From: Octopus vulgaris | Taxonomy: Eukaryota | Length of the DNA stretch: 64,000 nucleotides | Direction of reading: 5' to 3' | Assembly: GCA_951406725.2 (NCBI GenBank) | Contig: OX597831.1 | Coordinates: 248,001 to 312,000, forward strand | In this document: positions 4,346 through 64,000 of the stretch, piece by piece | Layout: the number at the start of each line of letters is the position of its first letter | How positions within the stretch are numbered: position 1 is the first letter of the stretch | The notes under the pieces: model-generated | What the model saw: the letters and a program-made list of their open reading frames with translations, nothing else | Told to the model about the DNA's origin: nothing | Databases searched by the model: none | Made by a program: the position numbers and the translations under genes

Positions 4346-4346
4346 T

Positions 4347-4629: not shown

Positions 4630-4692
4630 GTGTGTATATATATATATATATGTGTATATATATATATGTATGTATATATATATGTATATATA
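4346..4692. repeat. Compound (TA)n/(TG)n microsatellite
   Basis: About 350 bp of TA runs punctuated by TG; this produces the YI-rich spurious ORFs. Confidence 0.97.
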
Positions 4693-20172: not shown

Positions 20173-20703
20173 TATATCTAAAAGAGAAAGGGAATAGTGT
20201 GTTTAGATTCATTCCTGGTCTGTACAGAATGCTGTGTCTTGGGTATTGGCCAAGTGCTGCTCAACAGTGTGGTAGGCTGACAGGGTATTATGTGCGTTCA
20301 TGATGACTTAAATTCCTAAAACAATTAGTGAAATCACGCTACATGTTGCAAGTTATATTCACTCATGAGTGATGGTTAGCTATACTTTTAATATACCTGA
20401 AATTCTTTGTATTTTTGGTAGTTTTTCCATGCTATCTTGTTGATAGACCAATAATATTGAGGCTCTATTCCAACCAGATGCTCTTCCTGTTGCTAACTCT
20501 TGCTCCTTTTTTAAGTAGCTTATATTCCACTTGTCATAGAAAACTCAGTGTTACAGAATGTTTTTTTTTTTTGTCAATATAACATTACTGTTTTTCGCTC
20601 AAGTGTTTGCCTTTCATGTTTGCCTTTCATGTTGAATGTAAACTCATAGACATACAAGCATGTACACATACACATGCATATATATGTGGTTGTATGTGAG
20701 TGA

Positions 20704-29928: not shown

Positions 29929-31790
29929 TCATCATCATCATCGTTTAGCGTCCGCTTTCCCTGCTAGCATGGGTTGGACGGTTCAACTGGAGTCTGGGAA
30001 GTCAGAAGGCTACACCAGGCCCAGCCTGATCTGGCAATGTTTCTACGACTGGATGCCCTTCCTATCGCCAACCACACCGTGAATGTAGTGGGTGCTTTTT
30101 ACTTGCCACCAGTACAGTTCCCAGGCGAGGCTGGCAATGGCCACGATCGGATGGTGCTTTTTACGTGCCACAGGCACGAGGCCAGTCGGGGCGGCGCTGG
30201 CAACGGCCACGGCCACGTTTGGATGGTTCTCTTACGTACCACTGGCACTGGTATCACAGCTGCAATTTCCATTGATGTTGATCGATTTTGATTTTTGATT
30301 TTCACTTGCCTCAACAGGTCTTCACAAGTAGAGTTTTGTGTCCCAAGAAGGAAAGGTAGGCATAAGTGGACTGGCTACATCCCATGTAGAGGCCATGGGT
30401 TATGGTCTCATTTGTCTTGCCGGGTCTTCTCACGCACAGCATACTTCCAAAGGTCTCGGTCTCTAGTCATTTCCTCGGTGAGACCTAAAGTTCAAAGGTC
30501 GTGCTTCACCACCTCGTCCCAGGTTTTCCTGGGTCTACCTCTTCCACAGGTTCCCTCAACCGCTAGGGTGTAGCACTTTTTCACATAACTATCTTCATCC
30601 ATTCTCGCCACATAACCATACCAGCGCGCACACCACAACTGATGCTTCTTAGGTCCAGCTTTTCTCTCAAGGTACTTACACTCTGTCGAGTATGAACACT
30701 GGCATTACACATTCATCGGAGCATACTGGCTTCATTTCTTGCGAGCTTACGCATATCCTCAGCAGTCACGGCCCGTGTTTCACTGCCATGTAGCATGGCT
30801 GTTCGTACACATGCGTCATACAGTCTGCCTTTTACTCTGAGCGAGAGGCTTTTTGTCACCAGCAGAGGTAAGAGCTCTCTGAACTTTGCCCAAGCTATTC
30901 TTACTCTAGCAGTTACACTTTCAGCACACCCGCCCCCGCTACTGACTTGGTCACCTAGGTAACGGAAGCTATCAACTATCTCTAGTTTTTCTCCCTGGAA
31001 TGTGGCAGGAGTTGGTCTCAGAGCATTTTCAGTGTTTATTGCTCCTGAGCATCTGCCACATACAAAAACCATCTTCCTAGTTAGCCTTCCTTTGACATTG
31101 CTGCACCTCTTATGTGTCCATAGCTTACACTTGGTGCATCTTATAGAGTTTCTACCTACGCCTTTTCTACAGATCGAGCAGGGCCATCTACCTGAAGGCG
31201 TTTGTGATTTGTCTACCTTCCTACTTATTAGGACTTTGGTTTTAGCTAGATTGACTCTAAGTCCCTTCGATTCTAATCCTTGCTTCCACACCTGAAACCT
31301 CTCCTCCAGTTCTGATAGTGACTCAGCAATTAGAGCAAGGTCATCAGCATAGAGGAGCTCGCAGGGGCATCCTGTCTTGAATTCCTCCGTTATTGCCTGG
31401 AGGACTATGATAAATAGGAGAGGGCTGAGGACTGAGCCTTGGTGGATCCCTACCTCTACCCTGAATTCTTTAGTGTACTCATTGCCAACCCTCACCTTAC
31501 TAGTGGCATCCCTGTACATGGCTCGCACAGCTCTCACTAACCATTCATCTATCCCTAGTTTCCTCATTGACCACCAGATAAGGGATCGGGGGAACCCTGT
31601 TGAAGGCTTTCTCCATGTCAACGAAAGCCATGTACAGGGGCTTATCATTGGCTAGGTATTTCTCCTGCAGTTGCCTTACCAGGAATATAGCATCAGTGGT
31701 GCTTTTCCCTGGCACGAACCCAAACTGCATCTCATCTAAACTAACTCTCTCTCTAATTAGTTGGGCTATGACCCTCTCCGTAACCTTCAT
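29929..31790 (-). mobile_element. 5'-truncated RTE-clade non-LTR retrotransposon (partial RT ORF with frameshift and premature stops, 3' UTR, (GAT)n tail)
   Basis: ORFs 31545-31823 and 30713-31648 give QFGFVPGKSTTDAIF, AFVDMEKAFNRVP, GIHQGSVLSPLLF, LLYADDL and FRYLG. Frameshift near 31590 and a TGA at 30713. The frame continues to the RTE C-terminal motif GRGRPRKTW (about 30520-30545). The 3' end matches the many (CAT)n-flanked tail copies in the window. Confidence 0.93.
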
Positions 31791-41800: not shown

Positions 41801-42239
41801 GATCTTGGTTGAGAACCACTGATATAGGTAGTTGTTTGTGTTGTCCTTAGTTTGGAAACATTCAATAGGTTTTGTTTTGCTAAGGATTAAATGTAAGGTT
41901 CCGATGATCTGGTTTCGTGTTCACTTAATATTTGAAGTATTATTCCCCATGTCATTGACGGATATATTTCATGTATTATTTGTTACATAATGTCTTTTTT
42001 TTTCTTTTTGAAGTTTGAAAAAACCCACAAAATAATTTTTCTTTTCAAACCTTGACAAATGTATTATTTCTAGCTTTAATGATACTTTTGTAACTTTATG
42101 TACATATGTGTATGTATACATATCTGTGTGTGTGTAGATATGTTTGTATATATAAATCTGTGTGTGTATCTATATTTATAAAAATAAGTGCGCATGCGCG
42201 AACGTGTGCGCGTACGTGTGCGTGCGCAACGGACACGCA

Positions 42240-42536
42240 CGTAAAAGCACCATCTGTTCCTGTCCGTTGCCAGCCACGCCTGGCCCCCGTGCCGGTGGCA
42301 CGTAAAAGCACCATCCGCTCGTGGCCGTTTGCCAGCTCCATCTGGCACCTGTGCGGGTGGCACGTAAAAAGCACCCACTACACTCACGGAGTGGTTGGCA
42401 TTAGGAAGGGCATCCAGCCATAGAAACACTGCCAGATCAGACTGGAGTCTGATGCGGCCTTCCGGCTTCACAGACCCCAGTTGAACCGTCCAACCCATGC
42501 TAGCATGGAAAGCGGACGCTAATGATGATGATGATG
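42240..42536 (+). mobile_element. RTE 3' tail
   Basis: Reverse complement of the 37687 copy; ends (GAT)n. Confidence 0.88.
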
Positions 42537-42986
42537 TATGTATATATTTGTAGGTGTGCGTGTCACACACTAGTTGTAGATGATTGTCACTGTTATACAA
42601 GCAGTGTTACTCATTTTCAATATACTGCATGAGAAAAAATATTGTATCAGCATCCACGAGGTACTCATGTGGGACCAGGTGGAGTTAAATTTACTCATTC
42701 TGGATTTATACAATTAAAATATTTTTTTTTCAATTCTATAATTTAAAAATAATTGAAGTTGGGTTATTCTATCAAAAAACAATATTTCGTCTTTTGTCAG
42801 TTGTCTTAATATGATTGAAGTGTGAACCAATATTACAGAATAAAACTGGGGAGGGTGGGGGTAAATTTGAGGATGAATGGAATGGAAAAAGTTGAGGCTG
42901 TTCGTTTTTATTGTTGTTCCCGGTCTCTCAACTTGCTAGAAATAACATACAAATTTCTTCAAAAATCACACACCTCGCCGTCTTAA

Positions 42987-43207: not shown

Positions 43208-46200
43208 TTAAAACTACTTTATATAACTAAAACTACATGGTCCTTTGTGTCTCATAGTGATTTTATTTCTAGCAGGTCTAGTGACCACATAGAGGCTTCT
43301 TTATTGGTTATGTAGTTGTTTTTGTTGGTTCAACATTATGTAGTTTTCTGTTGTGTATTATTATTTCATCTGAGTGTGCATGATCAAGTTGATAATAGGT
43401 TAACAAACACATCAGTGTGGTGTCTCGATAGGCTACAAACAGCAGCTAAATCTCTCCCATCGCACTTTACTAATTTAAATAAACCTAGGACACATTAGAT
43501 ATTGGGGTTTTATACATACTCCATACAAAGACGTCATGGTCACGGCTGGAATGCCTGCTTTTGACCATAGCTAAACGACAATGGCTGTACTGTGCTTTTG
43601 TTTGATTGATTTATTAGTTTGAAGTGATAGGTTATTCGTTCCATGGATGAAAGTTTATAGCTGATAATATTTGCATCCCTATGAAGGCGTGGGATTTATC
43701 ATTTTGCTTAATGCTATATTAATCGGGGGTGGTGGTGGGGGTGATAAGCTAGCAAAGAGTAGTTTCCATCTATGGAGCTCCTATGTCCACTGCACAGCCA
43801 ACTAACTACCACTGTGACACGGTTTGAGGAAGCCTCCAGCGTGTTAGAAAAAACTCAAAATTCTCTAAAATCACAGTTTTATTGTCTTCTTTTTTTTTTC
43901 TTAAAAAAGTATATGTTGAATATGCAGTCCTAGGTGACGTGTCTTTGATTACAGTTTTATTTTTCTCCACCAGGGTTGACCTTGTGCCATAAGCATCAAC
44001 TACTGAAATATAGTCATTGACTGGATATTGGAAATAGTAACTGATAGACGATTGATGTCTTTAAGAAATTTGTATGATTGTTACAACTTCACATTTTCCT
44101 TTTTAAACATCTGTGGTACTATATCTCTATGTAAGGAATTATTATTATAGATATTGCCAGTGATTAGGACTCACCCTCTTCCCTTCCATATCATTCATTA
44201 TTTTTTGTGGATTTACATTTCGTAGTTGTCCCCCTTGCCTTTCCTGTCCATAATTAATCAATAAAGCTGTTTATTCTCTCATAACAGCTTTAATTGTAAT
44301 TATGGGTCCTCATTCCATTAATCCTTTTGGTTCTATATTTCTACTGAAATGCACCACTTTTATTTCGATTAATTTTGAAAATAATGAAGAATTTAGTACA
44401 ACAACTTTGTCATTATTAAGCTGAAGTTTGTAACAAAAATTATGCGAAATTTTGATGAATATTTTTTTACTTAAATCAATTTAAAGCATGAAGCTTGCAT
44501 CATAGAACCAGGGTTGGTCTCAGGTAGGCTGGTAGGGTTGGTCTCAGGTAGGGTTAAGCATGTTAGTCTTCCTTTAACTGGTATGCCAGTAACTGAAGAC
44601 AATATAACTACCGAACATTTTATAGTATTTAACAATTCTATCCCTCTGAGCTAGTGAATCAGTTTTGCCTTTTATAATGTCTGGGAAAAGTAGTGAGTCG
44701 ACTATACACGGCTGACTTGTTCTTACTATAGTAAAAAAACAATATCTATTGTTGGGTCGTTATTTTGCTCCAGACCACTCCTAATTCAGTAGATCTATGA
44801 CGACAGGTGTTCAAACCTTAATTATCATAACCTTTTTAAGGTCTGGTGCAACTAGGAATACACGATCCAATGTATCAGTACCCTTCTAAGAGAGTAAAAT
44901 TTGATTTGAAATTTTAGTTTTGCTGTTATTTCTAGCAGGTTAGTGATTGTGTAGAGGTTCCCTCGGATCAAGAATACGTATCAACCACGACCATGCTGTT
45001 TATATGAAATTACATTACAAACTGTTTTTTAAAATAATTCCTTTTGTGTGATTTGAAGGAGAGGTCTTGCCACCACATAGAAGAGGATATTTTGCTTGCA
45101 AGAAAAAGGTTTCACATAGTGCTTGCTTTTCTTTTCTTTATATCGTCCATAATGTCTACGTTCCTATTAAAGTGCTTATGCAGTCTATCCACAAATTTGT
45201 GGTCATGTGAGTATGGCTTGGGCAAAATACTTTACAATATTTAGTTTCATTTTGAGTTCAAGTCTTAGTACAATTTTGCTCTTTATCTTTCTGGGGTCGA
45301 TTGTGTGATCATGAACCTAGAAATATATAAAACAATGCTAGTAAAATGAAAAATTGATATATTAGTGTTTGCGTTTAATTAATAGCTACAACGACTCTAC
45401 TACCACGATGCAATTGTTTCATTCCTCAGCACACAAACGAGATCCAGATTTCCAGTGCGGTTGAGGAAAATGTATAGTATTTTCATTGGAAAATCCTAAC
45501 TGAATGATTGATATACAAGAGGTGAGGTATATTATGTCGTTGACTTTGGGTTGATGGTTCAAGACAGTGTCGACTTGGGCTAGATTTGAACTCGGAATCA
45601 AACTAAATACAGAGATATTGTGTCCAGTACTCCACTGTTACTAGTGCCACACAGTTGTTGAATCCTCATTTTGTACAAACATGCACAGACACAAACGAAT
45701 GACTGGTGCGTTGCTTGCTTTATGTTTGTGCCGTCGCTACTATACTATACTATTACACCAGCACACATTTTATGGTCATTGTTTAGCCCCAGGTCAACCT
45801 TGTTTGAGTAGAACTATGATGAAATGTATTACCGCCTAAACTACCTTGGCCCGTTATCTAATGTGATCTTGCCGTCATTGTTTCTTTTTTTTTTTTTTTC
45901 AAGATAACAGGGTTTAATTTGAGGAGTATTTGTCTGCTATTTCTAGCAGATTGAATAACCATGTTTGAGCAGTGGTTTATCAATCATATTTCGCTTATGG
46001 ACTCCTTTGATTCATATTTTACGCGGATTGATCCTCATAACAGTTGAATGTCTTTAAAACAATCCTATTGTATTTTCATAATTAAATATTATTTGAATTG
46101 TATGAAAAATTAATTGTTAAACTATATTGTGTATTATTATAAGAAGTATAACCACTTTATTGCACATTAAAATTTTAACGACAAAATCTTCTGGAGACCT

Positions 46201-48519
46201 CTCAAGGGCCGTAGGGACTCCGGTTGAACACCACCGAAGGCTTTCTCATTCACTAGGCCTTTTTTTTTTTTGTGTGTGATAGCTAAATAAATAAGTATGG
46301 TTACTTTTCGATGGTAAACTAGGGCATCTATTAGTCCTCCCTCCCACAAGCATTCACACATACAATTGTGGATGGATGCGCGCGCGATATATATTAAAAC
46401 CCGCCTTCTCTACGTCACCTCGTCCTCCCACTCACTGTAACCGCTTTTTAATTATCTCCCTTTAAACGAACTCTTCATTTGGTATCTTAGCTACCTTGCT
46501 TTGTCTGCATCAAGATGTTCGCCAAGCAAAACTAGTTCCCCCTCACATGTATATTATATAGGTATATTTTTGTAATTTCCTTCTTTTATTTTGTCAGGAT
46601 AAGAAATACGGGTTAGTTTAATATATTTGCTTGTTTATAAGACTTGATTTCTCTTGTTTCTTGCCGACTTTTTGTGTTGCATTCTTCGAGATAGCAAATG
46701 TTTGTATGACACACATACCGCACATATGTATGTATGTATGTGTGTGTGTATGTGTGTTACCCGCGCGCGTTTATACACGTGTGCGCGCGTATTTGCTTAT
46801 TCGTTAACGAGGCTATGTCAAAGAGATGTATTGATTTACAGATTTTTTTTTCTTCTTGCCTTTCTTCTTCTTCTTCTTCTTCCACAAGCTGGAATGATTT
46901 ATGTCTGTGAGCAAAAAATTAATCTTAGAGCTGTGAGTGAGACAAATGGTTCAAGTGTCGTATCCCTTCTTTTTCGCATATATATTGTATTGTGTGTGTG
47001 TGTGTGTGTGTGTAATATTTTAGTGTTTGTATGCATGTGTTTATCTGTGTGTACACTCATCGCGCGCGCAACTGTAGATGCGCTTGTGTTTGTACCATTT
47101 GTATGTAAGTGTAACGCGTTGTGTGTGTGTGTGTGTGTGTGTAGCCGTTGCTGTCAATAGTTGATTGTATTTGCGACACAAGTAACCTCCCATCACACCT
47201 CCAACGATAAATGATAACAATAATAATAACGCGACTTGTGATGGTTTTTGTGAACACGTTTGGGTAGGTTGTTTCTGCAAATATTGGTATTTGCATTTAT
47301 TTTCGTAGTCCCTAGTTAAACTACTACTACAAATGCACCGAAGAAGCGGGCCTATAATCAAAGTCTTTTCACATGGACCGTCTATGATTGAAAGGATATT
47401 TGGCTGCTAGCAGGTCAGAAATCATTTTGTTGGTTTATATTGGAACACATTTTCCTTTCCCCCCCCCCCACAGCTGAATACTCTTTTTTAACACGAGTCA
47501 CTGAACCGTGAAGTGAAAGGACACTTGTTGCCAGCCAAGAGTTACACATCTTGATGACGTATCCTGAAGTTTGAACACTTGACCACGGAGTTGTTAATCA
47601 AGCATTTTATAGCTAGAGATGTTTGTGAATAATTCCATGTCCACTCTGATCAACAGACCTATGACCAAAGGCATTCCAACCATGACCATCCCATAACTTT
47701 TTTGGGATGCATACATACTTGATGAACTTATCCAATGTATCCTTCCCTTCGAAAGATAACAGAGTTGCTTCGGTAACTGTGTTGAGGTACCCTCATTAAC
47801 TTATATGCTTGTTAGTTTTCTGTTAATTTCCCATATTAATTAATTATCTATCACGACACAGTAAAGTTGCATTGTTTTCAAATGATCATATAATTAGATG
47901 GAAACAGTATGAGACAACATCTATTCGTTACTCTTTTTGGCAAATGCAAGCGAGAACTTAAGATATTGTTCTGGACTTATTCTGACCTTATCATTAAAGT
48001 ATAGGCTGGTCCTTTCCAAAGTGGTTTTACTCACCTATTTGATTGTTCTTACTCTCCTGTTGACTGCAGTTACTCCTGTTTGGACGTTGTTACGACACCT
48101 TTTTGTGTCCTTTATCATACTTTTCTCTTTTAGCGTGTCAGTCTCTGGCATAAAATAAAGTCATCTCCTCTCATCTTAAATACATCCCCTACTCAGCTGA
48201 GGAGACGTTTTCTGTTTCTTTTCTTGTCTTGCAAGTTACTTGATAACCTCACCAGTGTCGCTGGTATGAATAAAGCTTCCAGTTCACACTGTGAATTAGT
48301 TGATGTTAGGAAGGGTATCCAACCATAGAAACTATGTCAAAGCTGACATTGGAGCTCAGCACAGCCTTGTGACTTGTCAAATACAGATAAACTGTCCAAT
48401 CTATGCCAGCATGGAAAACAGACATTGAATGATACCTCCACATGTCACAAAAGCATGCCACCTGTTTTGTAAATTGAAGAAGTTCAAATCTTGACTTGCA
48501 CTGAACTTGGATTATAGTG

Positions 48520-48614
48520 AGGGTGTGTGTGTTATCAACGAGGCACGAAGCGGCGAGTTCTGGGGGCATCGAGCATGAGTGCGGCCGGTCGGTCGGTCGG
48601 TCGGTCGGCGGGGA
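48520..48614 (+). promoter_or_regulatory. Candidate GC/CpG-rich non-coding first exon or proximal promoter of the NSD gene
   Basis: Short, very CpG-rich island (gaagcggcgag...gcggccggtcggtcggtcggtcggtcggcgggga) ending at a consensus donor GTAAGT (48615-48620), 3.4 kb upstream of the 52001 acceptor. The 5' boundary is approximate. Confidence 0.45.
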
Positions 48615-49387
48615 GTAAGTCTGAGTAGTGTCAAACAACCTCACCTTTTTTTTTTGTTTTAAATTTTGGCATGAACAACACATAGTTAAGTGACTCCTTT
48701 GGAAATATGATGGGATTAAAAATTTTTTTTTAATGTACCATTTCCTGGCCAGATGTTTCAATGCTGGGCACATTTATTTTTATTCGTTTTTTAAATGAAA
48801 ATACAAAAACTCCGCCAGTGAATGTTGACCATGGCTATGCACATGTATGAGTACACTTGTCTGTGGGATACTCAACCACTTACATGCTAATACAGTGAGA
48901 AGGTGATTCAGTTAACTAAGCCCTTAACCCTTCACTGTTAAAGCTGACAGATCCATTTACTCATTTATATTAACTACATTCAAAATCGGAGCATTTATTG
49001 AAATGGTTCAGAAGAGAGAACAGAAGGAATTTTGCAAATTCCTGTATTTATTGTCTTTCTATCATATTTCTCAACAAAATTTCAGTAGAAAATTCTTTTA
49101 ACCCTTTAGCATTCAGATTATTCTGTCAAATGTAAAATTTATTAATTCAGATTATTTTGAATTAATCATGCATTATCTCATAACTTCAGTGATGTTTTTT
49201 TTTTTTTAAGAATGGTATTGTAAGGTAGGTGTGAAAGGCCAGATCTGGCTGGTTTGAAAATAAAACAGGTAGAATATTTTGGCTAAGAAGAGATATCCGT
49301 TTCCTTTAGTGTCGGGATCATGTGTCTAATATTAATGTTATCCAAGCCCTCTTAGGTATTGTTTTCAAATGTTAGGGTCTAGTTTAA

Positions 49388-49608
49388 CCCTTTCGTTACT
49401 GAATTTATTTTGAGATGCTCAGTGTTTCTTTCAATTATGTTAAATATAACAAAGAATTAAGTAAAATAACATCGTTATCATTAAGCTAGAGTTAGGGACA
49501 TAAATTGTGACTAAGGTTTGGTGGAAGGTTTTAATTCAGAACTTTTGAAAACCAGACATTTGTACTAAAGAGCCAGAGCCGGTTTCAGCCGGGTTGGTAA
49601 CGAAAGGG
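49388..49608 (-). mobile_element. piggyBac-type MITE family 1, inverted relative to 42987-43207
   Basis: TTAA TSDs and the same TIRs. Its reverse complement differs from 42987-43207 at about 4 positions by eye. Confidence 0.9.
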
Positions 49609-52062
49609 TTAAAGGAAATTTACCTATTCCTAGCTTGTTTAATGACTATGTAGAGGCGTCTTTGTTGGTTCTGGGAACATCTTGTTTACCTAGCATGTAC
49701 TTATGTTACTCCCAATACTAATATTCCTTTTTGATATAGGCAGAAAAGCCTGAAATTTTTGAGGTGGGGGTGGGCTGTCAATAGCATCAAACTCAGTTGC
49801 ACAACTGTTGCTTATTTTAATTGACTCTGGAAGGAAGGAAGGATGAAAGGCAAAGTTGAACTCAGAACATAAAGAGCTGGAAGAAATACTGCCAAGCATT
49901 TTGTCTGATCTGCTAACGAATCTGCCATGAATCTAATACTAATATTGCTGCTGCTGTTCTAAGATTAACCAAGTGGGTTTGTGCCAGAAAGGTAAAGGGC
50001 TTAGAAAGACGCTTTGGGGGGTATTTAATTATTTAACATTCTGCATTCAAGTCCTGTTGGGCTCAGCTTAGCATTCCATTCATCCAGGCTCGATATGAAT
50101 CGCTCATGTATTTAACCCCACTCCCCCGTAAATATTTGGCCTTGTGCCCAGATGACCCCCCCCCCCCAAAAAAAATCCCCAGCAAATTTTTTTGTGTAAT
50201 GAATAGCAAAAGTAGTAGACTGTTACTAAATGTATTGCAGTATTTTTGTCTTTTACATACGGGGGTTTAAATTTTTCTTGGACTAACTTTGCTTCTCCCT
50301 TGCCTGCCCAGTGGGAAATTAGATAACCATCCATCAATAGAGTAATGGAGATGATTATCTCAACTATGACTGTATCCCTTTCCTCAAAATATATAGCCTG
50401 CAAAAGATAAAAAGCCTCATTATTATTTAAAGGCCAGTAGGTTGGTAGACTCGTTAGAGTGTTGGACAAAATACTTTGCAGTGTTCTTTTCACCTCCTTA
50501 CTTTTTGAGTTCAAATCCCACTGAGTTCAACTTTGCCTTTCAGCTTTTTTTTAAACTACTCTAGGGAAATACTAGGGTTTTTTAAATTGACTATACTTCC
50601 CCCAAAATTTCAGGTCTTGTGGCGACATTAAAAAATTATAATAATAATTAAGATGGCGAGCTGGCAGAATCATTAGCATGCTGAATGAAATGCTTAGCAG
50701 TATTTTGTGTGTTGCTATGTTCTGGGTTCAAATTCTGTTGAGGTCAACTTTGCTTTTCACCCCTTATTATATTGGGGTCAATATAATAAGTACCAGTTGA
50801 ACACTGGGGTTGATCTACTCGACTGGCCTCTTCCAAAATTTCAGGCCTTGTGCCTATAGAAAGGATTATTATTATTATTATTATTATTACAATAATGTTG
50901 TTGAATTCCAGTTTAGTCCTGGTTATGTCTATGATCAGATGTTCCTACTCTTGTTTATCCAAGACTATATCCAAAATGGCCTTTTCATTTTCAGGTTGGT
51001 GGAGCTTGACCTGAAGGTGCTTTGGCTGCTATGTGTAGCAGTTCGAGTAACCTTGTAGATATTTCAATGGTTTTTGATATTTAGTTATATCTTTGTGGTT
51101 TGAGTTTGTAGTTACAAAGTTTGATTCACTGTCATTTGTTGTTGGGTTTAATCATACTGTAACAACACCTTTGGCAAATTACCTTCTGTCAATAAGTTCA
51201 GGTTGTTCAATACCTTGTGAATGTAATTTGGCAGACAGAAACTGTGTTATGGTTTTTGTTTGTTTTTCATAATTTTTCATGGTCTGCATGTTCACTTGTC
51301 CATGCTTGCATGGTTCAGACGAAATTTGTTGCGGGAGATTTTTTGTGGCTGGGATACTCTTCCTGCCACCAAACCCCATCTACCTTCAAGCAAAATAATA
51401 TTTCCCCTAGTCCTGTATTTACATGTGTTATATCACTCTTTATAACAACATATACTACTAATTCCATCTGGGCTTTTTATAACTTGAGAGATAGTTTATA
51501 AGCAAAACTACATTTATAAATCTCTTTTTCTCTTTTATCTGTTACTTGTTCCAGCCATTTGACCGTAGCCATGCTGGCGCATCACTTTGAAGGGTTTTAG
51601 TCGAACAAATTGAATCCAGGACTTATATTTTTAAGCCTGGTACTTATTCTTATGGTTTCTTTTGCCAAATTTCTAAGTTATGGGAGATGTAAACACACCA
51701 ACACCGGTTGTCAAGCAGTTGTTGGGGACAAACACACATTTGATGGACTTCTTTTAGTTAACATCAACCAAATCCACTCGCAAGCCTTTGGTCAGCTTGT
51801 GACTATAGTAGAATACACTTGGCCAAGGTGCCACATAGTGAAACTGATCCTAGAACCATATGATTGGGAAATAAGCTTCTTACCATACCATCACACCTGT
51901 GTTTTAAGTTTTCTTTTAAAATCTAGATGTAAATGTATGTTTTGTTATATGAAATTATACCTCCCCACACTGATATAACTTTTTATATTTCTTTCAAACA
52001 GATATTAACAATGGAATTGTTTTAAAGTTCATTTTGAACTTTAAACTGGCCAATTAACCCTG

Positions 52063-52687
52063 ATGAATGGTATTAGTTCAACTCTAGTTACCCAGTTGCC
52101 TCCAATCCCCGCAGTTGGCGTGAATCCCAAGTTAACACCAAATCCAATTGGTCTAAGTACGGGCTTGAACAGTGAAGAGGCTAGCTACCCAGTTTTGCAT
52201 TTCCAGTCCCCATTAAAAACATCCCCACCGGAAGGAGGAGGAGAGCGAGATGGAAGAACGAGCGAACCAGTTTGTGAGAAACAGCAGATTGAAGTGCCAG
52301 CTTTGATGCCAATGGACCAGTCCACTCGTAGAAGGATCCGTCATGTGCCGAAACATGAGCCGTTGAGCGAGAGTACCGCTACCACTACAACATCTACCAC
52401 CACCACCAGTGCTACTATTGCTACAACTACTACTGCTACTGCTATTGTTAATAGTACGTCAGATGACAAGATGAAGGTTCCTGTTAAAGATCCTACTTCT
52501 AAAGTGGAAACGACCTCGAAGGAGAACCAGAGTGTTCCGAAAAAGACTGATCCGTTGTTGGAAAAGCATGAGAAGCCAGCCAAGTGGCTTGTTGGCGACC
52601 TCATTTGGTCAAAAGTATCTGGTCATCCTTGGTGGCCCTGCCTTATTGCTTGTGATCCTCTTGAAGGGATCTATACCAAACTGTGTG
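52063..52687 (+). CDS. NSD2: NSD-family (NSD2/WHSC1-like) histone H3K36 methyltransferase, first coding exon: disordered N-terminus plus N-terminal half of PWWP1
   Basis: ORF 52063+ ends in [32 protein letters not shown], matching recalled human NSD2 PWWP1 ([23 protein letters not shown]..YTKLK). Acceptor ttttatatttctttcaaacag ends at 52001, so the exon starts at 52002 with 61 nt of UTR. In-frame TAA at 52042 lies upstream of the ATG. Donor G|gtaaga at 52688, phase 1. The symbol reflects closest similarity; invertebrates usually have a single NSD. Confidence 0.92.
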
Positions 52688-53018
52688 GTAAGATATTGTC
52701 TTTTGTATTTTATTAGGCCAAACCGTTCTATGTTTTATTTTCAAGTCTATAATTTCTTTCTAAACGATTTGTGTGTGTGTGTGTGTGTGCATGTGCAGGC
52801 TCAACAACATCTGAGATTAAAAAGTTTGCTTTGTAACTACATGCCATGCCATGTAGTGAACCCCACTACATGGCATGTTGGGAAAATATCTTTTAATGTA
52901 TCTATATATATATATAGCTTTGGAGTGATAGATACATTGCAAGTCGGATTTGAGGTGGAAACTGTTTAGAAATTCATCCTAAGCACATGCACACCCATAC
53001 ATGTCTCTGTGAGCATAT

Positions 53019-53242
53019 ACTCTTTACTCTTTTACTTGTTTCAGTCATTTGACTGCGGCCATGCTGGAGCACCGCCTTCAGTCGAGCAAGTCGACCCCGG
53101 GACTTATTCTTTGTAAGCCCAGTACTTATTCTATCGGTCTCTTTTGCCGAACCGCTAAGTGACGGGGACGTAAGCACACCAGCATCGGTTGTCAAGCAAT
53201 GCTAGGGGGACAAACACAGACACACAAACATATACACACGCA

Positions 53243-53280
<38 letters not shown>

Positions 53281-53445
53281 TACGACAGGCTTCTTTCAGT
53301 TTCCGTCTACCACATCCACTCACAAGGCATTGGTCGGCCCGGGGCTATAGCAGAAGACACTTGCCCAAGATGCCACGCAGTGGGACTGAACCCGGAACCA
53401 TGTGGTTGGTTAGCAAGCTACTTACCACACAGCCACTCCTGCGCC
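53019..53445 (-). mobile_element. SINE family A in the NSD intron
   Basis: Near-identical to 9394-9807. Confidence 0.9.
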
Positions 53446-53453
53446 TATATGTG

Positions 53454-53490
<37 letters not shown>

Positions 53491-54661
53491 TTGCTTATGT
53501 TTACATCAGTGTTTGTGTCAGTTTGTTTTATAACTTAGTGGGTTGATAAATAGTGTGGAGCTTAGGTGTTTCGTTCATAAACACACACATCGCCCAGTCT
53601 GAGATCCAAACCCGTGATCCCTTGGCCACGAGTCCACTGCTCTAACCACTAGGCCATGTGCCTCCACAATAAACAGAATGGCTGAGGTAAATAAGATGAT
53701 CTTGTTTGTTTATTTTTTTTTAACGTTATTAACAATGACAGTTGTGATAGGTTTAGTTAATTTTCTTTAACAACATGAAGAAGATGAAGCTATTTCTTAA
53801 ACCCTTTTGATACCAGCTTACTGAGACAGCCCCTGGTTCTCTGGTACAAGCTTCCTCTTAAAAACTGATCTGAATTAAAATTTTCAATCAAAATTTCATG
53901 TTGATATATTTACAAACATCAGTTATTTTAATATATTCTTCAGTATTTTGGAAAATAATTAAATCAAAGGCAGTGTTTTCCACAAAAATATGGTAATGAA
54001 AGGATTAATGTCCATTTTTTTTTTTGTGGTTCTAGAGTTAAATATTGGTAATAATCCACCAGATAACATTTCTTTAAATCCATTGCAGAAGTATTTAGTT
54101 TGAGTAATATATTTCAACGTAACCTTAGTTAACCCAGCTTGTTCGCAATAGGTACTAGGTAGTCTAAGAAATTTAATTCAGACCAGTATCGTCTTCAGAG
54201 ATGTGTGGGAGTTATTTCTCTTATTTGCTGAATACTGCCCAGCAAGGGCTGGTATGTTACGAGGCAGTCTGCCTGGTGGAGTGCACCGCTCTTCAGGCCA
54301 CTGGATACAGCTGGACATTTTGTACCTGGGAGAAAGTAGGAAAATTGCTTAGTCAGGAGGTGAACTTGCATTGCAGATATTGTGTTTAGAGAGAGGAAGA
54401 ATCTGTGGTTGCTTTATCTGCTGGAAATAACAGCCAAATCTTCACTGAAATCACACCTGGTGTCTTGATAAAAGAAAATACATTGGGATAATGTAGCCCT
54501 ATATTTGTTATATCTGGAAAAAAAGACTGGTTGATCACAGCTGGAATGTTTTTAATCAAACAATCAGTTTGATATTCAAGGTTGACCTAGAGCTAAGCAA
54601 TAAAACCTTTTAAATATCAAGAAATAGAAAATCACAAATCGTCTATTTACTATTTAAATTA

Positions 54662-56126
54662 TTGTGTTGGCAAGAGAGTAATTTCGGATTTTTAGTGTAA
54701 TTTTTTTCATACAAAGAATGAACTTCAATCAGTTATATATTTTCCATTTTGTGGAACTTCTGGTCCTTATCAGCCCAAAACTGAAGCAGGTGCAATTTCA
54801 GGTCATCATCATTATTGAAAGTTTTACCATTCAATAAATTTTGCAAACTTCAAAATAAATGGTAATCTGATGGTCCAAAGTCAGAGCTATAAGGTGGATA
54901 TGACATTACTCCCCAACCAAGCTTCAATCATTTTCCTGAGTTAGCAAAGCAATGTGTGGTCTATCATTGTCATGGTGGAACATGATTCCTTTATGATTTG
55001 CCAATTCTGGTTGTTTTTCGTTGATTGATTCTTCCAGTTTCGTTAGTTGTCGATAGTAAACATCTGAATTCATCGTTTGGTTCCTTGGAAGCAGCTCAAA
55101 ATACACAACACCTTTATAATCCCACCAGATTGACAGACAGCATGACCTTTTTGTTTATGCAGTTCAGCTTTCAATGTGGTTTGTGCTGGTTCATTGTGCT
55201 TGGACCATGATCGTTTTTGATTGATGTTATTGTAGACAATCCATTTTTCATCACCACTGATGATTCATTTAAAAAAAAACCAAAAAGGGCTGATTTCATT
55301 GCGTTTGACATGCATATAGCAAATTTTGATTTGTTGTGTTAACCCTTTAGCATTTAAACCGGCCATATCCGGCTGAAAGTATTCTGCTTGTTTTATGTTC
55401 AAACTGGCCATATCTGGTCTCTCACACCAACCCTACAATACCATCTTAAAAATTAACAGCTTCCTCATCAAAATCTCATAACTACAAGATAATGCATGAT
55501 TAGTTCAAAACAATGTGGATGAAAAGGCATTAATTTTGGCAGAATAATGCGAACACTAAAGGGTTAAGTGAATCTCTTTTAATGAATGTAGAACCCAAAT
55601 ATCAAGCTGCTTAATGAGTACAAGATATTCTAAGTGATTTTCAATTGTTGTGTGTGATACATTTAGCCTCTCTGCAATCTCTCGCACAATTATGTGACAA
55701 TCAGATTCAATTATGGTTTTGATTTGGTCATCATCAACTTCAGTAGGTCGACCAGAATGTTGGTCATCTTTGAGTGAAAAATCTCTAGAACAGAATTTTT
55801 AAAACCATTTCTGACATGTGCGTGCGTTCTGTGAAGCAATCGACACCATAAACTTAACATATCTTTTTGTGAGCCTCGGCAGCCTTCTTGTTTTTAAGGA
55901 AATAAAAAAGCAAAATATGGCGAAAATGTTCGATGTTGCACCCCATGTTAAAATTGACACTAAATTAACAGCTGTAAAGAAAATTATGTGCAATTTGCTT
56001 CTAAAGTAAGCTAAAAGTAACAGCTATCAAATGTCAAAAGGAAAAAGTCATAACGTTGACAAGAGTAATTTTAAAATATCGTAACTCTGTTTGCAAAAAA
56101 CAAAAAATACTTTCTTACCAACCTAA
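54662..56126 (-). mobile_element. Decayed mariner copy 2, in the intron splitting PWWP1
   Basis: Same TIRs and collinear with copy 1. Remnant YFELLPRNQTMNSDVYYRQL...FHHDNDRPH. Has an internal deletion near 54750 and a MITE insertion at 55343-55563. Confidence 0.9.
55343..55563 (+). mobile_element. piggyBac-type MITE family 2 inserted in mariner copy 2
   Basis: TTAA|CCCTTTAG ... CTAAAGGG|TTAA. The empty TTAA site is at 35869-35872 in mariner copy 1. A sister copy is at about 40253-40473. Confidence 0.9.
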
Positions 56127-56190
56127 TATAAAATGTTCAAATTTATGGAGGCCTTAAGAAAATTTTTATTGGTCTTTTATTTATTTAAAA

Positions 56191-56428
56191 CAGTGGTTCT
56201 CAACCATTTATTGTTCAATTCCTATTTTATTCCTATTTTACTCTACTGGATCTCCATAGTTTTTGCTGAATATAACAAACATCTTACTGTATTTTTATAA
56301 TTAAATATTAGTAGGAATTGTATTAAAAAAAAAAACTTAAAATATTTATGTTCTGTAGAAGTGTTACCAATTTATTGGAGATAATTTTAAGAATAAAATC
56401 TTATGTGGACCCCTGTTGAGGACCACTG
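56191..56428. mobile_element. hAT (Charlie/MER5-like) MITE
   Basis: TIRs cagtggttctcaac / gttgaggaccactg and an imperfect 8-bp TSD atttaaaa/gtttaaag. Related copies at about 41570-41821 and 45970-46235. Confidence 0.7.
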
Positions 56429-56672
56429 GTTTAAAGCAAGTACTGAGGCCAACTCCTGAGACATAGAAATTTACTATCGCCTTTTATTTATTTTTGTACA
56501 TGTTGGGCTTTGTACCTTCTTGTCAAAAGAAATATTGTATTGTCAAGATAATCTTTCTTCCTCTTCCTGTCTATCTGTGTATGTATCTAGTCTAACAATC
56601 TGTTTATTTGTTTATCAATCTGCCTACTCACTCATGTATTTATGTATTTTTACTTTTATTTTCCACTTGCAG

Positions 56673-57539
56673 TAAAAGGCAAAGGATGTGTGCGGAATTA
56701 CCATGTGCAGTATTTTTATGATGAACCAGAGCGGGCATGGGTGAGTGAGAATGCAACACTTGGATTTGAAGGGAAAGACAAATTCTTCAAATATGTAGAA
56801 GATATGCTAGAAAGGGCACCTGCTAAACAGCGATCCCAGATTTCACAGAAATATGGAGTCAGCAAACACAAGCGCCCAGTTTGGGACCGTGCTGTTCGTT
56901 CAGCAGAAGTAGCACTGCCTTTATCCCACTCTGAACGGAAACTCTGCTACATAAACAACTTTGACAAACATCCTGAGAAGAAGAAGCAAGAGTCTCCGGA
57001 AAAGTTGGCAGTTGAGGTTAGCAAACCAGAGAAAGCTGGTCCCAAAGCCAAGAAACAAAAGACTGAGAGTTCTAGTGGTGCTGGTGTTACTAGTGGAGGA
57101 GATGGTGGTGGTAAAGTGAAAATAGAGTCTTCTTCTGCCAGTAAATTACCATCTATTGTCAATGGAACTCTTGCTAAGAAACGCCACGCGTCACCTGGTA
57201 GCTTCGCCAACGACTCTGACAGCATTGCGTCACCGCAGCGGAAAAGGCCAAAAGCGGCCAGCGGTGCTGAGTCAGGTGGTGGGGCTGCCGGTGGCAGTGG
57301 GTGTGTTACTACTCCGAAATCAGGGAAAGATGATGGTTCTTTTGATATGTTCTGTCAGAAGCATAGGGAGGGTGTTCTGTCTGAGCACTCGGACTTTGAT
57401 GAGCAAATGGTAGTTGAATATCTCAGGCAACAATGGAGTATGATGAGCCAGAAGCAGAGAGCTCGTTACAAGTCTAAGTTTGGTGGTGGTGGTGGAGGTG
57501 GAGGAGGAGGTGTCATTACAAGCAGAGGTACATCATCAG
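56673..57539 (+). CDS. NSD2: NSD-family methyltransferase, second coding exon: C-terminal half of PWWP1, basic/Gly-rich linker and HMG box
   Basis: Acceptor ttttattttccacttgcag ends at 56672. G+TA gives Val, in phase with the previous exon (KLC-V-KGKGCVRNYHVQYFYDEPERAWV; compare NSD2 RQYHVQFFGDAPERAWI). HMG box FDMFCQKHREGVLSEHSDFDEQMVVEYLRQQWSMMSQKQRARYKSKF (compare NSD2 FLVFCQKHRDEVVAEHPD...[20 protein letters not shown]). Donor cag|gtaaat at 57540. Confidence 0.93.
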
Positions 57540-58679
57540 GTAAATGAATTTTAACTGTTTTAATTGAAGCAGTTGAAAACTGACCTGAGCAGAAGCAAAA
57601 GCTGTAATTTTTCACAAAAACAAAGAAAGAAAAATTATTAATTATAATAATAATAATAATAATAATAATAATTATAATTATGATTATAATAACAATAATA
57701 ATTATACACTGAAAAAAGAGCGGGTTTAAAGCATAAACATTCTTTAAATATTGACAATTGGAAGAAAAGGAAAAATATTTTTTTTTTAAATTGAAATTAA
57801 ATTAATATTTTTACTATTCTCTTATTATATTCTTCCCATGATTACCTCATTTTTATTTTGTAAAAAAAATTATATTTATCTTAAGTGATAACCATAAATA
57901 TTTCAGAAATTTTACAAAAGTAACTATTAATTTTCATTACCTAGATTGATTAGGTTCATTAGTCCTTTATGAAAGAGTATGTATATATATATGTACACAT
58001 GCATATATATTATATAGATGAATATTGAGTATAATTGTGATGATAGCAATAGTAATGATAATAATAATATAATAACAATAATAATAATTCAAACGGGTCC
58101 CATGATGTAGTAGATACATTAATTTATTTTTAAAAAAGAAAACATGAAAAAGTGCTTTACTTTTTTTAAAAATACTTAAATTTAAAAAAAAATATTATTT
58201 AAAGATTTTTTTTCCCATTTTTTTCCTCCCCAAAACATTAAACATTTTCATTGTTTTTCTTTCAATTTTTATTTATTTATTTATTTTAATATTTAAAAAA
58301 AGACAAGGAAAGAAAAAAAAAATTTCTATCTCTCACTCACTTTTCCTCCCCTGACATAGAAAAATCATTTGAAAGCGGGTTTGAGAGTGTTTAAAACTGG
58401 AGAAGACAGCCTGATTTTTGAGCGGACTAAGTTGCCTTTTGAAGTTATACACACTGCAGGCTGTTCCAGAGGTGAATGGAATCAAATTAACAAGAAACAT
58501 ATTAAAACATTACATGTGAAGCAGGTCCATTTTTTTTTTTTCATCCTTATCACTTGGATGGTTGAATCCCATACATAAAAACATGCATGCATAATTTTTT
58601 TAACAGAAGGTGGGAAATGAGGGACAAAATACACACACTCACACTATTTTCAAACAGTTATCTCTTTTATATATATATA

Positions 58680-58727
<48 letters not shown>

Positions 58728-61167
58728 CTCTTATATATTGTATATTTAATATATATTTATGGTCATGTTTCTGATATGACTGACTGACCAAGCATATTTC
58801 AAATTCACCCTACCTCTTGAAGATTAAAATGAAGAAAAGAAATTAAGATTTAAGACAAAAGAATTTAATTTTCCTCTTTGTTTTACTAATTTAATTTTTA
58901 TTTATTTATTTATTTACTGATTTAAAAAATGAAAACACAAAAAACCTCAACCTCCCTTCCAATTCATACAGTATTATTCATAAATTTATGATATTGCCTT
59001 AACATCCATTAAGAAAAAAAAAATTGGCATTAAAAAAAAACCCCTAAAAATTTGATGGATAAATACAATCATATTTTATGAAAAATGTTTTATAACAAAA
59101 TACTTTTACATTTTTTTGTCTTGTGGCAAATGATTTAACTTTATTTATTATTTTTTTGGACTTCTCCCTCAACTTATTTGGATGTAAATATAGGGATAGC
59201 ATTTTTAGTTGTCACTTTATATTATAAGTATGGACACATAACACAAACACTTGACTATTTCTTACTCTTGTAATAATGGGAAATTTAGTAATGTTGCCAA
59301 AAAAGAAAAAAAGAAAAAAAAATGTAAAGCAAAAAAAAAGAGGGGGGCGGAAGTTATAAGGCTGAGTGTTGTTTTTTTTTAATGATATATATGTATATTA
59401 TTAACCAACATACCCTCCACTGACTCCTCACCCACCACCTTCATTTCTGGAATAGCCCTGCTTTGTGGTCAATCATCATGGATTCCATGGTTGTTTGAAT
59501 TAAAAAAAAAACAATAAAAAATATATATATATGTATGTATATTCTATTATATGTATATGTATATATAGCTTTGTAATAATAATATCATAATGTTGTATTT
59601 TACATTCACCTCGTAAAGTTCATGTACTCCTAGGAAAATAAACAGTAGTCTTTACCAAAATGGTAATGCTACTGAGCTACACTTCTGGAAATTTTGGTAT
59701 TTTTTTTTTCTCATTTTGGTGTAAAGTGTGCATATATCTGTGAATGTATGGACTTTGGCATGGTGTTTAGTCTATCTGTCCCCTTAAAATCTTCAGCTGA
59801 ATCTCCAAATTTTAAACACAATTGCCGGCATCTGTTTTTCAAATGTCAAGTAACAATAAGAAAAATGATAATATTAATAATAACAAAAAAGGGGAAAAAA
59901 ATGACAGATCTTAAATTAATAATAATAGTTACCATTCCTTTTATGTTTTCAATTCTTTTATTTTCTAGTTATTTCTTTAAATAATAATTTTAACAATGAA
60001 AATTTGTTAAGTTTCAAGATTATGCATTTAGAAAAAAATCAATCCACTAAAAATCATCTTAGGGTTAATGAAAACATTATATAAATTATAAAAATTTATA
60101 TATATAAATTTAAATTAAAATGTTACCCATAGATTAAAATTTAAAGTAAGTTATTTGAAAAGAGGTGTATTTTTCATGTGAAGTTCCAAAAAAAAAAAAA
60201 AGAAGATAGATATTAATTTTCAGTATTGATTGAAAAAAAAAAAAGCCAAAACTAAATCAGTTAGTGGGTAAGTTAAACTGTTTTTATAGTATCTCTGAAA
60301 TCTTATTGAAATGTTTTTCCTTTATTGAATTCCAAATTTTGAAAGAAGAAAAAAAAATTTGATATTTCATTATATCAATTTCTGATATGAAAGAAACAGG
60401 GGAACAAAGAAGAAAAAAAAAATAACAGCTTTTGCTAACTTAAGAAGCTACAGGGAAATTTTTCGATTGTGTGATCTTTGAAGAATTTTTTTTTTTTTCC
60501 TTAAAAAAAGAAACTGTTAGTAAAATTATGCTTTTCTTTATATATACATAGCATGTGTACACTTGCACACTGACAAACAAACAAAATGAAACAAATACAC
60601 ATTCACACAAACAAGCCTTAAGGGCCAGAATTTCATTTACAAGAATTCTCTCTCTCTTTCTCTCTCTGACTTGGTTTTGATATTCCCTATTCCAAAAAAG
60701 AATTATTTCCCATTCTCCTAAAGTTTTTAAATTCTTATACCATCATACAATTCCCACTAGTAAGAATAAAATTTCAGAAATGGAGAGAGGAATTTGGGAA
60801 TTGCTTTGGTCCAGTGGTGGAATGGCCTGTCATGTTTACAGATGTAAGGTTCCATCACAGGCAACCTTTAACTTTTTCTATCTAAGAGGTTTTTTTTCAT
60901 TGCAGTATTTGCACTCTATCATTTGTAGCGTTCTTTATTTCAAGATCAACTATTGGCCAAAATAATTGTGTATATGTTTAGCATACATTAGAATCTTCAT
61001 TGATATTTTCAGTTTGAAATCTCAAATTGATTAAACTGAGATGCTTTCATAAAGCAGATATCTAGAATTGAAGCAAAAGAATTTTTTTTTATTTTACCAC
61101 AAAATCTAATTCCTGCAAACACTAATTGAAAATATTTTAGGTAAAAAAAAAAAAAGAATATATATAT

Positions 61168-61565
61168 TCTTTTACTTGTTTCAGTCATGTGACTGTGGCC
61201 ATGCTAGAGCACCGTCTTTAGTCGAGCAAATCGACCCCAGGACTTATTCTTTGTAAGCCTAGTACTTATTCTATCGGTCTCTTTTGCCGAACCGCTAAGT
61301 TACGGGGATGTAAACACACCAGCATTGGTTGTCAAGTGATGTGGGGGGGGGGGGGGGTCAAACACAGAAACACACACACACACGCACACATATACATATA
61401 TACGACGAGCTTCTCTCAGTTTCCGTCTACCAAATTCACTCAGAAGGCTTTGGTCAGCCCGAGGCTATAGTAGAAGACATTTGCCCACGGTGCCACGCAG
61501 TGAGACTGAACCCGGAGCCATGTGGTTTGTAAGCAAGCTACTTACCACACAGCCACTCCTATGCC
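61168..61565 (-). mobile_element. SINE family A; first transposon after the TE-free interval
   Basis: Family A tail, core and head. Confidence 0.88.
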
Positions 61566-63838
61566 TATATGTACAGTTTTTCTTTTTATTGAAAATTTTT
61601 TCTATCGTTGAAGATATTTTGTCTTTTCATAATTTAATCAATATCTGTATTTTTGTTTTTAAAGCTAAGTGTGAATATCCTTTTATATATATATCATTTG
61701 TTTTTTAATGTCCACTTTTCTGCACTTAAACAAATGGGGAAGAATTTTTGAGGCATATTTTCTACATCTGGATGCTAAACTTTACATGTAAGGTATTTTC
61801 CCAAACTCCAACATGTTTTCATGGAAGATTGGAAATGGACACTGCTTGTATGCCAGTGACACTCATTTACAACTATCATGTGATGTCAAGGCAAGGAGAC
61901 AGTAATACATGGGTATATACACATATGTACCTCGCTTGGTAACAGGTGGGGGTTGGCGTCAGGAAGGGCATCCGGCCGTAGAAAGCTTGCCACACGCTTA
62001 GCGCTGCGTATATGTGTGTACTATTAGCTTATTTGACTTTCCATTTATCAGATCCATTCACAAGGCTTTGGTCAGCCTAGGGCTATAGAAAACAACACTT
62101 GCCCAAGATGCCATGCAGTGAGACTGAATCCAGAACGATGTAGTTGGGAAGCAAATTTCTGACCACACAACCACCCTTTAGTGTGTGTGTGTGTAAAGGT
62201 TTGTCACTTAGTTCTTAAGGTGTTACACTTGTGATCTTAAGATGCAGTATGTTCTTGAGCAAAGTTCAAATCCCAACTAAAGGCAACATTGCTTTTCATT
62301 TTCTGAGGCTGATAATTAAGTATTGGATTGATATAATTGACTGTCCTCTCCTACACTAGAAATTGTGGCCTTGTACCATAATTTTTATTAATGGTTACAA
62401 ATCATCATCATCATCATCGAGTGAGAGAACAATGTATGCCATCAAAGTAATGCTGGGGTACAAATAGATGAAGCCCAGTATACCCATCATGACTACCCGT
62501 CTGATAGGGGTACACAGGCTCATGCATTGTAACCATATGTGTGTGACATGGTGACTTCATATCAAGATAATCAGTGCATGAACCTGCAGGTTGTTTAAGG
62601 ATGATGAACAAAACAGCCACACTTTCAGTGGTGAATTCTTCAGACCCCAAAGAATTCCACTCAAGACGTGGCTATGCTGCTACTCTACTCCTGCTTGTGA
62701 TCAGAGATGCACATATCAGCTGCCAAGGGATATGCTCAAGTGGTCAAAATCAAGCAAGTCTGCGATAGTGAGCAGAGTATATGTTGCATCCATCTTTTAT
62801 AAAATCAGTTAAGATGAGAAGACATGAGAGAATTTAGTAAAATAACTTTTGTCATCTGATGTCTGGAGCATAAATTAATATGAATTTTGATGGAAACTTT
62901 TAGTTTAGATCACCTTGAAGCTGGAAGTTTGTATTGTGGAACTCGTGTGATCTGTGGTGGGTTGGTTTCAAATGGGTTAAGATGGAATACTGACAGAAAT
63001 GGTTGGCTGAGTACTAAATGTTTCTATTCTATGATGCACTGACTTCAAATCTTATTAGGATTTGTAAAATAAGATGTAACATGTTGGTGTGGCTCTATGG
63101 TTAAGAAGCTAATTTCTCAATATGTGGTTGTAGGTTCAATTCCACTGCAGCACCTGGAGAAAGTGTTTTCTATAGTCACAGGCTGAGCAAGTTCTTGAAA
63201 GTGGATACATGTATGAGTGTGTGTGTGTGTGTATGAATGAATAAAACAAACAATACAAATGTGCATTGTGACCAGCAACGTGTCACATCTGATAGCTTGG
63301 TCAGTCACTTGATACACGCACACACCAATGTATGTGTTGATGCACCTCATGTACCCGTGTGTTGATATGGTTGTAAGTGAGCATCACCATTATACAAGCA
63401 GTGTTGTTTGTTTCTAGTTGTTTGTGAAAAACATGTCTGGCTGTGGAGGAAATATTACCCTGCTTGGAAACAAGTGAGGGCGGGCAACAAGAAGGGCATC
63501 TGAATGTAGAAAAATTTATTATAAATTCTGTCTGATCCATGCAAGCATGAAAAAGTGAACGTTAAATGATGCTGCTGTCATGACACTGAAGAATTAGGTC
63601 TTTCAGTTTGTTTGTAATATTTCTGGCACTAGTTCTTGTCTTTTCACATCTTCCTTTAATGGTAGTTATAGTCTTGTCAGGTAAACAAGATTGTTTTTAT
63701 GTAATAGACAATACAGACATTGTGAGGTGAGTACCATTGTCTTATTTTTAGCCAATACTTGTTATTTTAGAGAATAGCTCTTTCCAAATGCCAACCACTA
63801 TACTGAATTCTGAAAACAAAGTGGTATGTATACTTTAA

Positions 63839-64000
63839 CCCTTTCGTTACCAACTCGGCTGGAACCGGTTCTGTCTCTGTAGTACAAATATCTTGTTTTC
63901 ATAAGTTTTGAATTAAAATCTCCCACCAAACCATAGTCACAATTTATGTTCCTAACACCAGCTTAACCCTTTAGCATTCAGATTATTCTGTCAAATATAA
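63839..64000 (+). mobile_element. piggyBac-type MITE family 1 interrupted at an internal TTAA by another CCCTTTAG-type MITE (runs off the window)
   Basis: ttaaccctttcgttacc at 63835, then gcttaaccctttagcattcag at 63961. Confidence 0.75.

Follow-up and report, generated by a model that had tools for sequence, protein, structure and literature searches.

A Probable SET-less NSD Isoform of Octopus and Cuttlefish That Ends by Read-through of a Splice Donor

RESULTS

The NSD gene of octopus and cuttlefish probably gives rise to a short isoform that is real and conserved in this lineage. Comparison of genomic, protein, and contig sequences makes it fairly probable that this is an intronic polyadenylation isoform with a composite terminal exon, shared by octopus and cuttlefish, the long 3′ UTR of which would end probably at 60.8–61.1 kb of the window (the 64-kb stretch of octopus DNA analyzed here). 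In our model, a second mRNA would skip the splice donor at position 57540 and be polyadenylated within the A/T-rich tract that follows. Intronic cleavage would compete with splicing of the long intron, yielding a composite terminal exon whose 3′ UTR could reach about 3.2–3.6 kb. The short mRNA would encode a 499-aa protein with PWWP1 and HMG domains but without PHD fingers, PWWP2, and SET. Junction-dependent decay needs an exon junction past the stop codon; with no junction 3′ of its stop, the short mRNA would escape this decay.

Two Exons and a Read-through Stop Encode a PWWP1-HMG Protein

Two NSD exons are located on the plus strand of the window. Exon A (52002..52687) codes for a disordered N terminus and the N-terminal half of PWWP1 and is followed by a phase-1 donor at 52688. 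Its putative acceptor AG (52000–52001, plus strand) was placed from the sequence alone. The start ATG is found at 52063 (plus strand) with in-frame stops 5′ of it, and an upstream ORF of four codons (MELF-stop, 52011–52025, plus strand) lies between the putative acceptor and this ATG. The PWWP N-terminal half scores above the Pfam cut-off, and exon A shares 55% identity with the cuttlefish N terminus, counted from the first Met. The PWWP1-internal intron (52688..56672, plus strand) consists of 57% interspersed repeat and is removed by splicing in cuttlefish short ORFs. Exon B (56673..57539, plus strand) contains the C-terminal half of PWWP1 (to about 56947), a linker, an HMG box (about 57338–57478), and a Gly-rich tail. 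Among named proteins, Sepia pharaonis WHSC1 is the nearest to it (62–63% identity with residues 243–533), and it aligns with human NSD2 residues 256–507 with an E-value of 1e-24. The HMG box is recognized by Pfam with an E-value of 3e-4, a match that falls short of the curated cut-off. The top structural database matches of PWWP1 are the PWWP1 domains of NSD2 and NSD3, and the arrangement is that of an NSD2-like protein, with an N-terminal PWWP1 and an HMG box 3′ of it.

Exon B ends at the phase-1 donor CAG/GTAAAT (CAG/GTAAATGA, 57540..57547, plus strand), which has 8 of the 9 consensus positions and lacks +5G; the donor of the PWWP intron agrees at 6 of 9. Reading through the donor gives GGT AAA TGA (G-K-stop), with the TGA at 57545–57547, two codons past the donor. 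Joining 52063–52687 (625 nt) to 56673–57547 (875 nt) produces a spliced sequence of 1500 nt with a single stop, which codes for 499 amino acids ending in ITSRGTSSGK. The read-through stop, the 1500-nt coding sequence, and the 499-aa PWWP+HMG product of the original prediction are thus all reproduced. We located no NSD exon after exon B within the remaining 6.4 kb of the 64-kb window; PHD fingers, PWWP2, AWS-SET, and C5HCH are carried by a cuttlefish orthologue (P0002) and by a partial protein from Octopus bimaculoides (P0005). An exact look-up of four window ORFs in our protein collection returned no match (0/4), and a 499-aa protein of the same species was not found in this collection.

Upstream of exon A, a GC-rich patch (48540–48620) with a (CGGT)n repeat and a GTAAGT donor at 48615 is a candidate for a non-coding first exon, and the repeat-free gap just 5′ of it (44445–48223) resembles a promoter region.

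Cuttlefish-type ORFs End at the Same Donor

P0001, an ORF from another species that is 93% identical, also ends in GTSSGK. The cuttlefish cluster has 11 members: three annotated long forms, the C-terminal partial from O. bimaculoides, and seven Logan/ENA ORFs. All seven of the latter have the C terminus RATSSGK; two carry intron-derived N termini (P0008 and P0011), three have internal starts, and two are full (P0009 and P0014). P0009 (473 aa, four Logan contigs) and P0014 (470 aa, one contig) each start at the first Met, span the exon A-B junction, and finish with RATSSGK-stop. P0009 is identical to residues 63–533 of S. pharaonis WHSC1, the long form of which then reads DEPVKEE (RATSS-DEPVKEE) and goes on to the SET domain. 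The GT-AAA-TGA-type stop, for which a comparison with other cephalopods and molluscs had been suggested, is therefore kept at the protein level in P0001 and in the cuttlefish ORFs. A donor consensus model, built on general nucleotide frequencies and with a single independent comparison, puts the probability of G-K-stop at 0.04 and that of a stop of any kind at this codon at 0.11, so that conservation of the stop lends modest support.

Exon B is identical in P0009 and P0011, and the N terminus of P0011 is intron-derived at the PWWP intron point. The PWWP intron thus exists in the cuttlefish lineage, and the exon A-B join in P0009 and P0014 is a splice. We assumed that the protein collection uses the complete-ORF set of Logan, the non-human proteins of which are complete Prodigal calls only, according to the available part of its description (PMC12424806). 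Because only complete ORFs are kept, the cuttlefish stop should be real and internal to the contigs. Long forms are under-represented for the same reason, and isoform ratios are thus unreadable from Logan ORFs. As judged from these alignments, the P0009 and P0014 contigs are spliced RNA in which the same donor was ignored, a state in which a mature mRNA and a nascent or detained intermediate look alike. The defining feature of a composite terminal exon, failure to use one donor while the rest of the transcript is spliced, is found in cuttlefish P0009 and P0014; for octopus itself, we infer it.

The O. bimaculoides entry P0005 (XP_052830225.1) is annotated as NSD2 and represents the C-terminal half only, with an intron-like N terminus. 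Its gene model is split, which could reflect a gap in the assembly or the dominance of a short transcript.

A Repeat-free A/T-rich Tract Starts at the Stop Codon

The tract that follows the stop (57548..61164, plus strand) has 25% GC and no interspersed repeats, and is likely the 3′ UTR of the short form and the start of an intron for the long form. Its GC content is 25.0% versus 36.3% in the non-repeat background, its CpG observed/expected ratio is 0.16, and A-runs of at least 7 nt are 6-fold denser than in the background. We counted 13 A-runs of 8–14 nt, along with (TAA)n, (AAT)n, and (TA)n microsatellites. The change in composition starts directly at the stop codon. In a self-BLAST of the window, which detects only repeats having a second copy in these 64 kb, repeat cover of 57548–61164 is 0% even at E ≤1; at E ≤1e-5, cover amounts to 39% in 48617–52000, 57% in 52688–56672, and 52% in 61165–64000. 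The A/T-rich, repeat-free character described for these 3.6 kb is borne out; two further repeat-free gaps exist in the window (1–6063 and 44445–48223). Under random placement of repeats, the probability of finding this given tract empty is 0.003, and that of an equally long gap anywhere in the window is 0.20. Transposons do resume abruptly after the tract, at 61165 rather than at 61168 as first reported. This first interspersed repeat (61165..61573, strand not given) has up to 15 overlapping matches in the window, and we take it to be SINE-like. Searches of the tract returned no Rfam match over 3.2 kb and no ORF having homology, and none of the three loci from a metagenome scan has DNA similarity to it.

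Elsewhere in the window, the gap at 1–6063 is the longest repeat-free one; it is rich in (TA)n, has a CpG observed/expected ratio of 0.87, and might belong to the regulatory DNA of a different gene. A 312-aa open frame on the minus strand (30713–31651) is presumably a LINE reverse transcriptase fragment. Several long open frames occur in tandem-like repeat units of higher GC content at 19563–20303, and the repeats at about 29860–30251 and 42237–42542 are related to these units.

Candidate Polyadenylation Signals and Read-through in Public Runs

The tract contains three sense AATAAA and nine ATTAAA hexamers. The AATAAA at 59513..59518 is located within an A-run and is a weak candidate signal; the one at 59637..59642 is followed by a T-rich stretch and is a candidate proximal signal; the one at 60765..60770 is a candidate distal signal, to which an ATTAAA at 61030 provides an alternative (all plus strand). 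Sense AATAAA is rarer than chance, with 3 occurrences versus 11–12 expected from order-1 and order-2 Markov models and versus 6 at order 3 (P = 0.16). By strand, the count is 3 sense versus 16 antisense (P = 0.004), the minus-strand copies lying mostly in overlapping (TTTA)n runs. This depletion is the avoidance expected of any transcribed region and marks no end. We consequently dropped the three AATAAA hexamers as evidence for polyadenylation: their positions were given correctly in the original prediction, but being below chance and outnumbered by 16 antisense copies, they do not have the weight assigned to them. In the available text on octopus poly(A) sites, 71% use canonical signals and the median 3′ UTR measures 350–380 nt (PMC9699675). 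The putative UTR of 3.2–3.6 kb would thus be exceptionally long, about 10 times the octopus median.

A search of public sequencing runs with 56673–61167 returned 24 rows, of which 20 (7 studies) contain all or part of the region and four contain next to none. Fourteen small runs (43–119 million letters, 5 studies, 3 organism labels), the RNA type of which is a guess, contain a share of 0.39–0.67 of the words of 56673–61167, where the share counts words present and not depth. The exon alone accounts for 0.19 of the words. Two genome-sized runs, one of which may be the source of the window, reach 0.67–0.68, which is close to the fraction of words (0.71) that lie clear of homopolymers and microsatellites. 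The expected share is about 0.47 for an RNA that ends at 59.64 kb and about 0.65 for one that ends at 60.8 kb; nine of the 14 small runs are at or above 0.58 and thus over 0.47. As a lead only, these word shares favor the distal end, and they fit an end at or beyond the AATAAA at 60765.

Alternative Explanations

The main competing explanation is that the post-HMG intron is spliced slowly or detained and that partly spliced nuclear RNA is caught by oligo-dT at the A-runs. The G-K-stop would then simply follow from the donor consensus, and neither mRNA nor protein of the short form would be stably produced. We consider this unlikely, but it accounts for several of our observations: the intron is long, its donor is strong-looking (8/9 consensus), the 13 A-runs of at least 8 nt could prime oligo-dT, and a stop at that codon is expected from the donor model in about one case out of nine. 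The cuttlefish contigs, which are spliced upstream and unspliced downstream, would equally fit nascent RNA. Internal priming is on record for octopus Iso-Seq, in the available text of PMC9699675. Slow or detained splicing alone, however, leaves unexplained the total absence of repeats and the shift in composition over exactly 3.6 kb, as well as the stop shared by octopus-type and cuttlefish sequences. It also sits poorly with the small runs of five studies, the word shares of which range up to those of genome-sized runs.

The tract could also be a constrained intronic control region (an enhancer, an element controlling splicing, or a retention switch linked to decay and tuning full-length NSD). 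Read-through RNA would then be real but would serve to lower enzyme output, the short protein being incidental. Repeat exclusion also marks regulatory DNA, because the other gap near the gene, 44445–48223, sits at the presumed promoter, and the strong avoidance of sense AATAAA reported above fits such a region. The low CpG ratio and GC content of the tract are unlike those of the promoter-side gap, however, Rfam returned no match over 3.2 kb of it, and truncation at the donor leaves both protein domains whole, making this explanation rather improbable. We find it hardly credible that the tract is part of a nested or antisense non-coding transcript that meets the NSD donor by chance. The 16 minus-strand AATAAA would suit this possibility, but they lie mostly in (TTTA)n runs; the composition shifts right at the stop, the cuttlefish contigs continue from the exons through the stop, and the tract contains no homologous ORF or RNA family. 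We thus favor donor read-through with intronic polyadenylation.

Comparison with Vertebrate Short NSD Forms

The composite terminal exon is the commonest type of intronic polyadenylation isoform in human, with 61.6% of the assembled isoforms according to the available part of PMC5928244. The putative cephalopod form would resemble this type in that the donor is unrecognized and the start of the intron becomes the last exon; it would differ in its UTR, which is unusually long for octopus, and in having a cleavage site that is only a candidate.

MMSET I (NSD2-S, 647 aa) keeps PWWP1 and the HMG box and has no SET domain (PMC12870971, from the part available). The cephalopod short form shares with it the gene family, the PWWP1+HMG content, and the absence of SET. 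Pfam detects only PWWP and HMG in the rat 647-aa NSD2 form (P0176), in contrast to one figure legend of PMC12650565, where NSD2S is drawn with a PHD finger. The end point differs: 20–21 residues follow the HMG box here, whereas the vertebrate MMSET I site lies about 120–160 residues past it. Of 114 proteins newly retrieved, almost all of them vertebrate NSD2, 83 end 111–175 residues after the box. The vertebrate form stops at a later intron, just before PHD1, which is not homologous to the one used here, and most mammalian forms end in a separate last exon (LLWEPTSVKLDLNSAALYCT). Some vertebrate versions, as judged from their peptide ends (SLTENE-VK), seem to be donor read-through as well. The available text of PMC7947288 holds nothing on how MMSET I ends. 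By position, the intron used in cephalopods matches human EEDSG/NVNGK near residue 519, and it thus appears to exist in vertebrates too. Read-through of the EEDSG intron is seen in a few vertebrate gene models (tuatara, Xenopus, gecko, Staurois, and tamarin), which may be annotation artefacts. Because vertebrate MMSET I ends at the later intron, a shared function would be convergent at most; of the "ancient or convergent" short/long NSD system that had been proposed, the first option is unsupported.

NSD3S (645 aa) is a SET-less adaptor between the BRD4 ET domain and CHD8, in the available text of PMC12650565 and PMC10815784. It resembles the cephalopod protein in being a SET-less N-terminal form, and the cephalopod sequence has a predicted K-hydrophobic-K-hydrophobic motif before PWWP1. 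In contrast to the cephalopod form, NSD3S has PWWP1 without an HMG box, and by the partial account available, it is made by alternative splicing of exon 10.

Possible Function of the Short Protein

Both domains are left whole in the short form (Pfam PWWP 156–264 and HMG 407–453 in P0009). A single-sequence AlphaFold model of P0009 has a mean pLDDT of 46 and is confident for the HMG box and one PWWP helix only; the three HMG helices have pLDDT values >90, and the break point lies in the low confidence tail. The short protein would bind H3K36-methylated nucleosomes via PWWP1 and would either compete with the long form or aid it, possibly acting through KMKV and a BET protein. This reading of H3K36 methylation, with a role as non-catalytic competitor or adaptor and a possible KMKV-BET contact, is the weakest step of our model and a tentative one.

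KMKV (52468..52479, plus strand) is the sole K-hydrophobic-K-hydrophobic motif before PWWP1 and a candidate BET ET-domain binding motif. The octopus window shares it with the two cuttlefish ORFs, and the corresponding region of vertebrate NSD2 reads EIKLKIT; such a motif is missing in 8 of 16 other proteins scanned, snail-type ones included. KMKV matches the ET-binding consensus given in the available part of PMC11939847. The most far-reaching version of the model, in which a SET-less PWWP1+HMG isoform, conserved, abundant, and equipped with a multi-kb regulated 3′ UTR, arose independently in coleoids, binds BET proteins via KMKV, and serves as an adaptor of the NSD3-short kind or as a brake on H3K36me2, appears doubtful to us.

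DISCUSSION

SET-less NSD2 and NSD3 isoforms have been studied in mammals as cancer-relevant adaptors. Our literature searches on cephalopods, molluscs, octopus, and Drosophila, which covered few subscription journals, returned no invertebrate SET-less NSD isoform, nor did a search on NSD2/NSD3 and intronic polyadenylation with the same coverage. NSD names are absent from the supplements of PMC9699675 other than the isoform GTF, and this octopus isoform GTF may already include the short NSD isoform.

The octopus and cuttlefish lineages diverged about 270 million years ago, and coleoid cephalopods likely have a single NSD gene. If the short form is made in both by way of an intron different from the vertebrate one, this would argue that a reader-only NSD has been selected repeatedly and is no vertebrate by-product. 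In the far-reaching version above, the split of NSD into writer and reader would be a convergent solution arrived at by way of another intron. An animal with likely one NSD gene would be available for probing the reader-only role. Cephalopod gene models would also need correction, such as the O. bimaculoides RefSeq entry that represents the C-terminal half only. Intronic polyadenylation as a mechanism is already well known, and the surprise is thus moderate.

NSD-like Proteins in Other Animals

We rejected several snail-type short ORFs with a continuous PWWP domain (P0021, P0024, P0026 with its apple-snail cluster, and P0028) as proof of splicing, because P0028 runs uninterrupted on a 239-kb contig and its lineage is thus without the PWWP intron. 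The apple-snail cluster (P0026 and P0150–P0154) comprises PWWP+HMG ORFs of 754–755 aa that end in SGRL, on Logan contigs of 4.0–7.4 kb; they may represent either short transcripts that carry long UTRs or stretches of genomic DNA, as the lineage seems to be without the PWWP intron. Short tails elsewhere were left unused on account of biased assignment and related taxa: 8 of 21 non-coleoid rows end at most 2 residues from a possible split Gly, as assigned by eye. The metagenome locus L001 has an 8-residue tail.

A sea urchin NSD N-terminal half of 788/789 aa (P0053 and P0158) was set aside as a short form; it is probably a split gene model, since a separate entry for the C-terminal half exists (P0160). 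The Lytechinus pictus entries (P0053 and P0160) are split like that of O. bimaculoides P0005. Three Mytilus proteins of 592–677 aa (P0268, P0269, and P0094) combine an NSD-like PWWP with PF10497 and have neither HMG nor SET; it is possible that they represent a separate PWWP1-derived gene. P0043 and P0046 are divergent NSD-like proteins with PWWP, HMG, and PHD domains, which may be lineage-specific paralogues.
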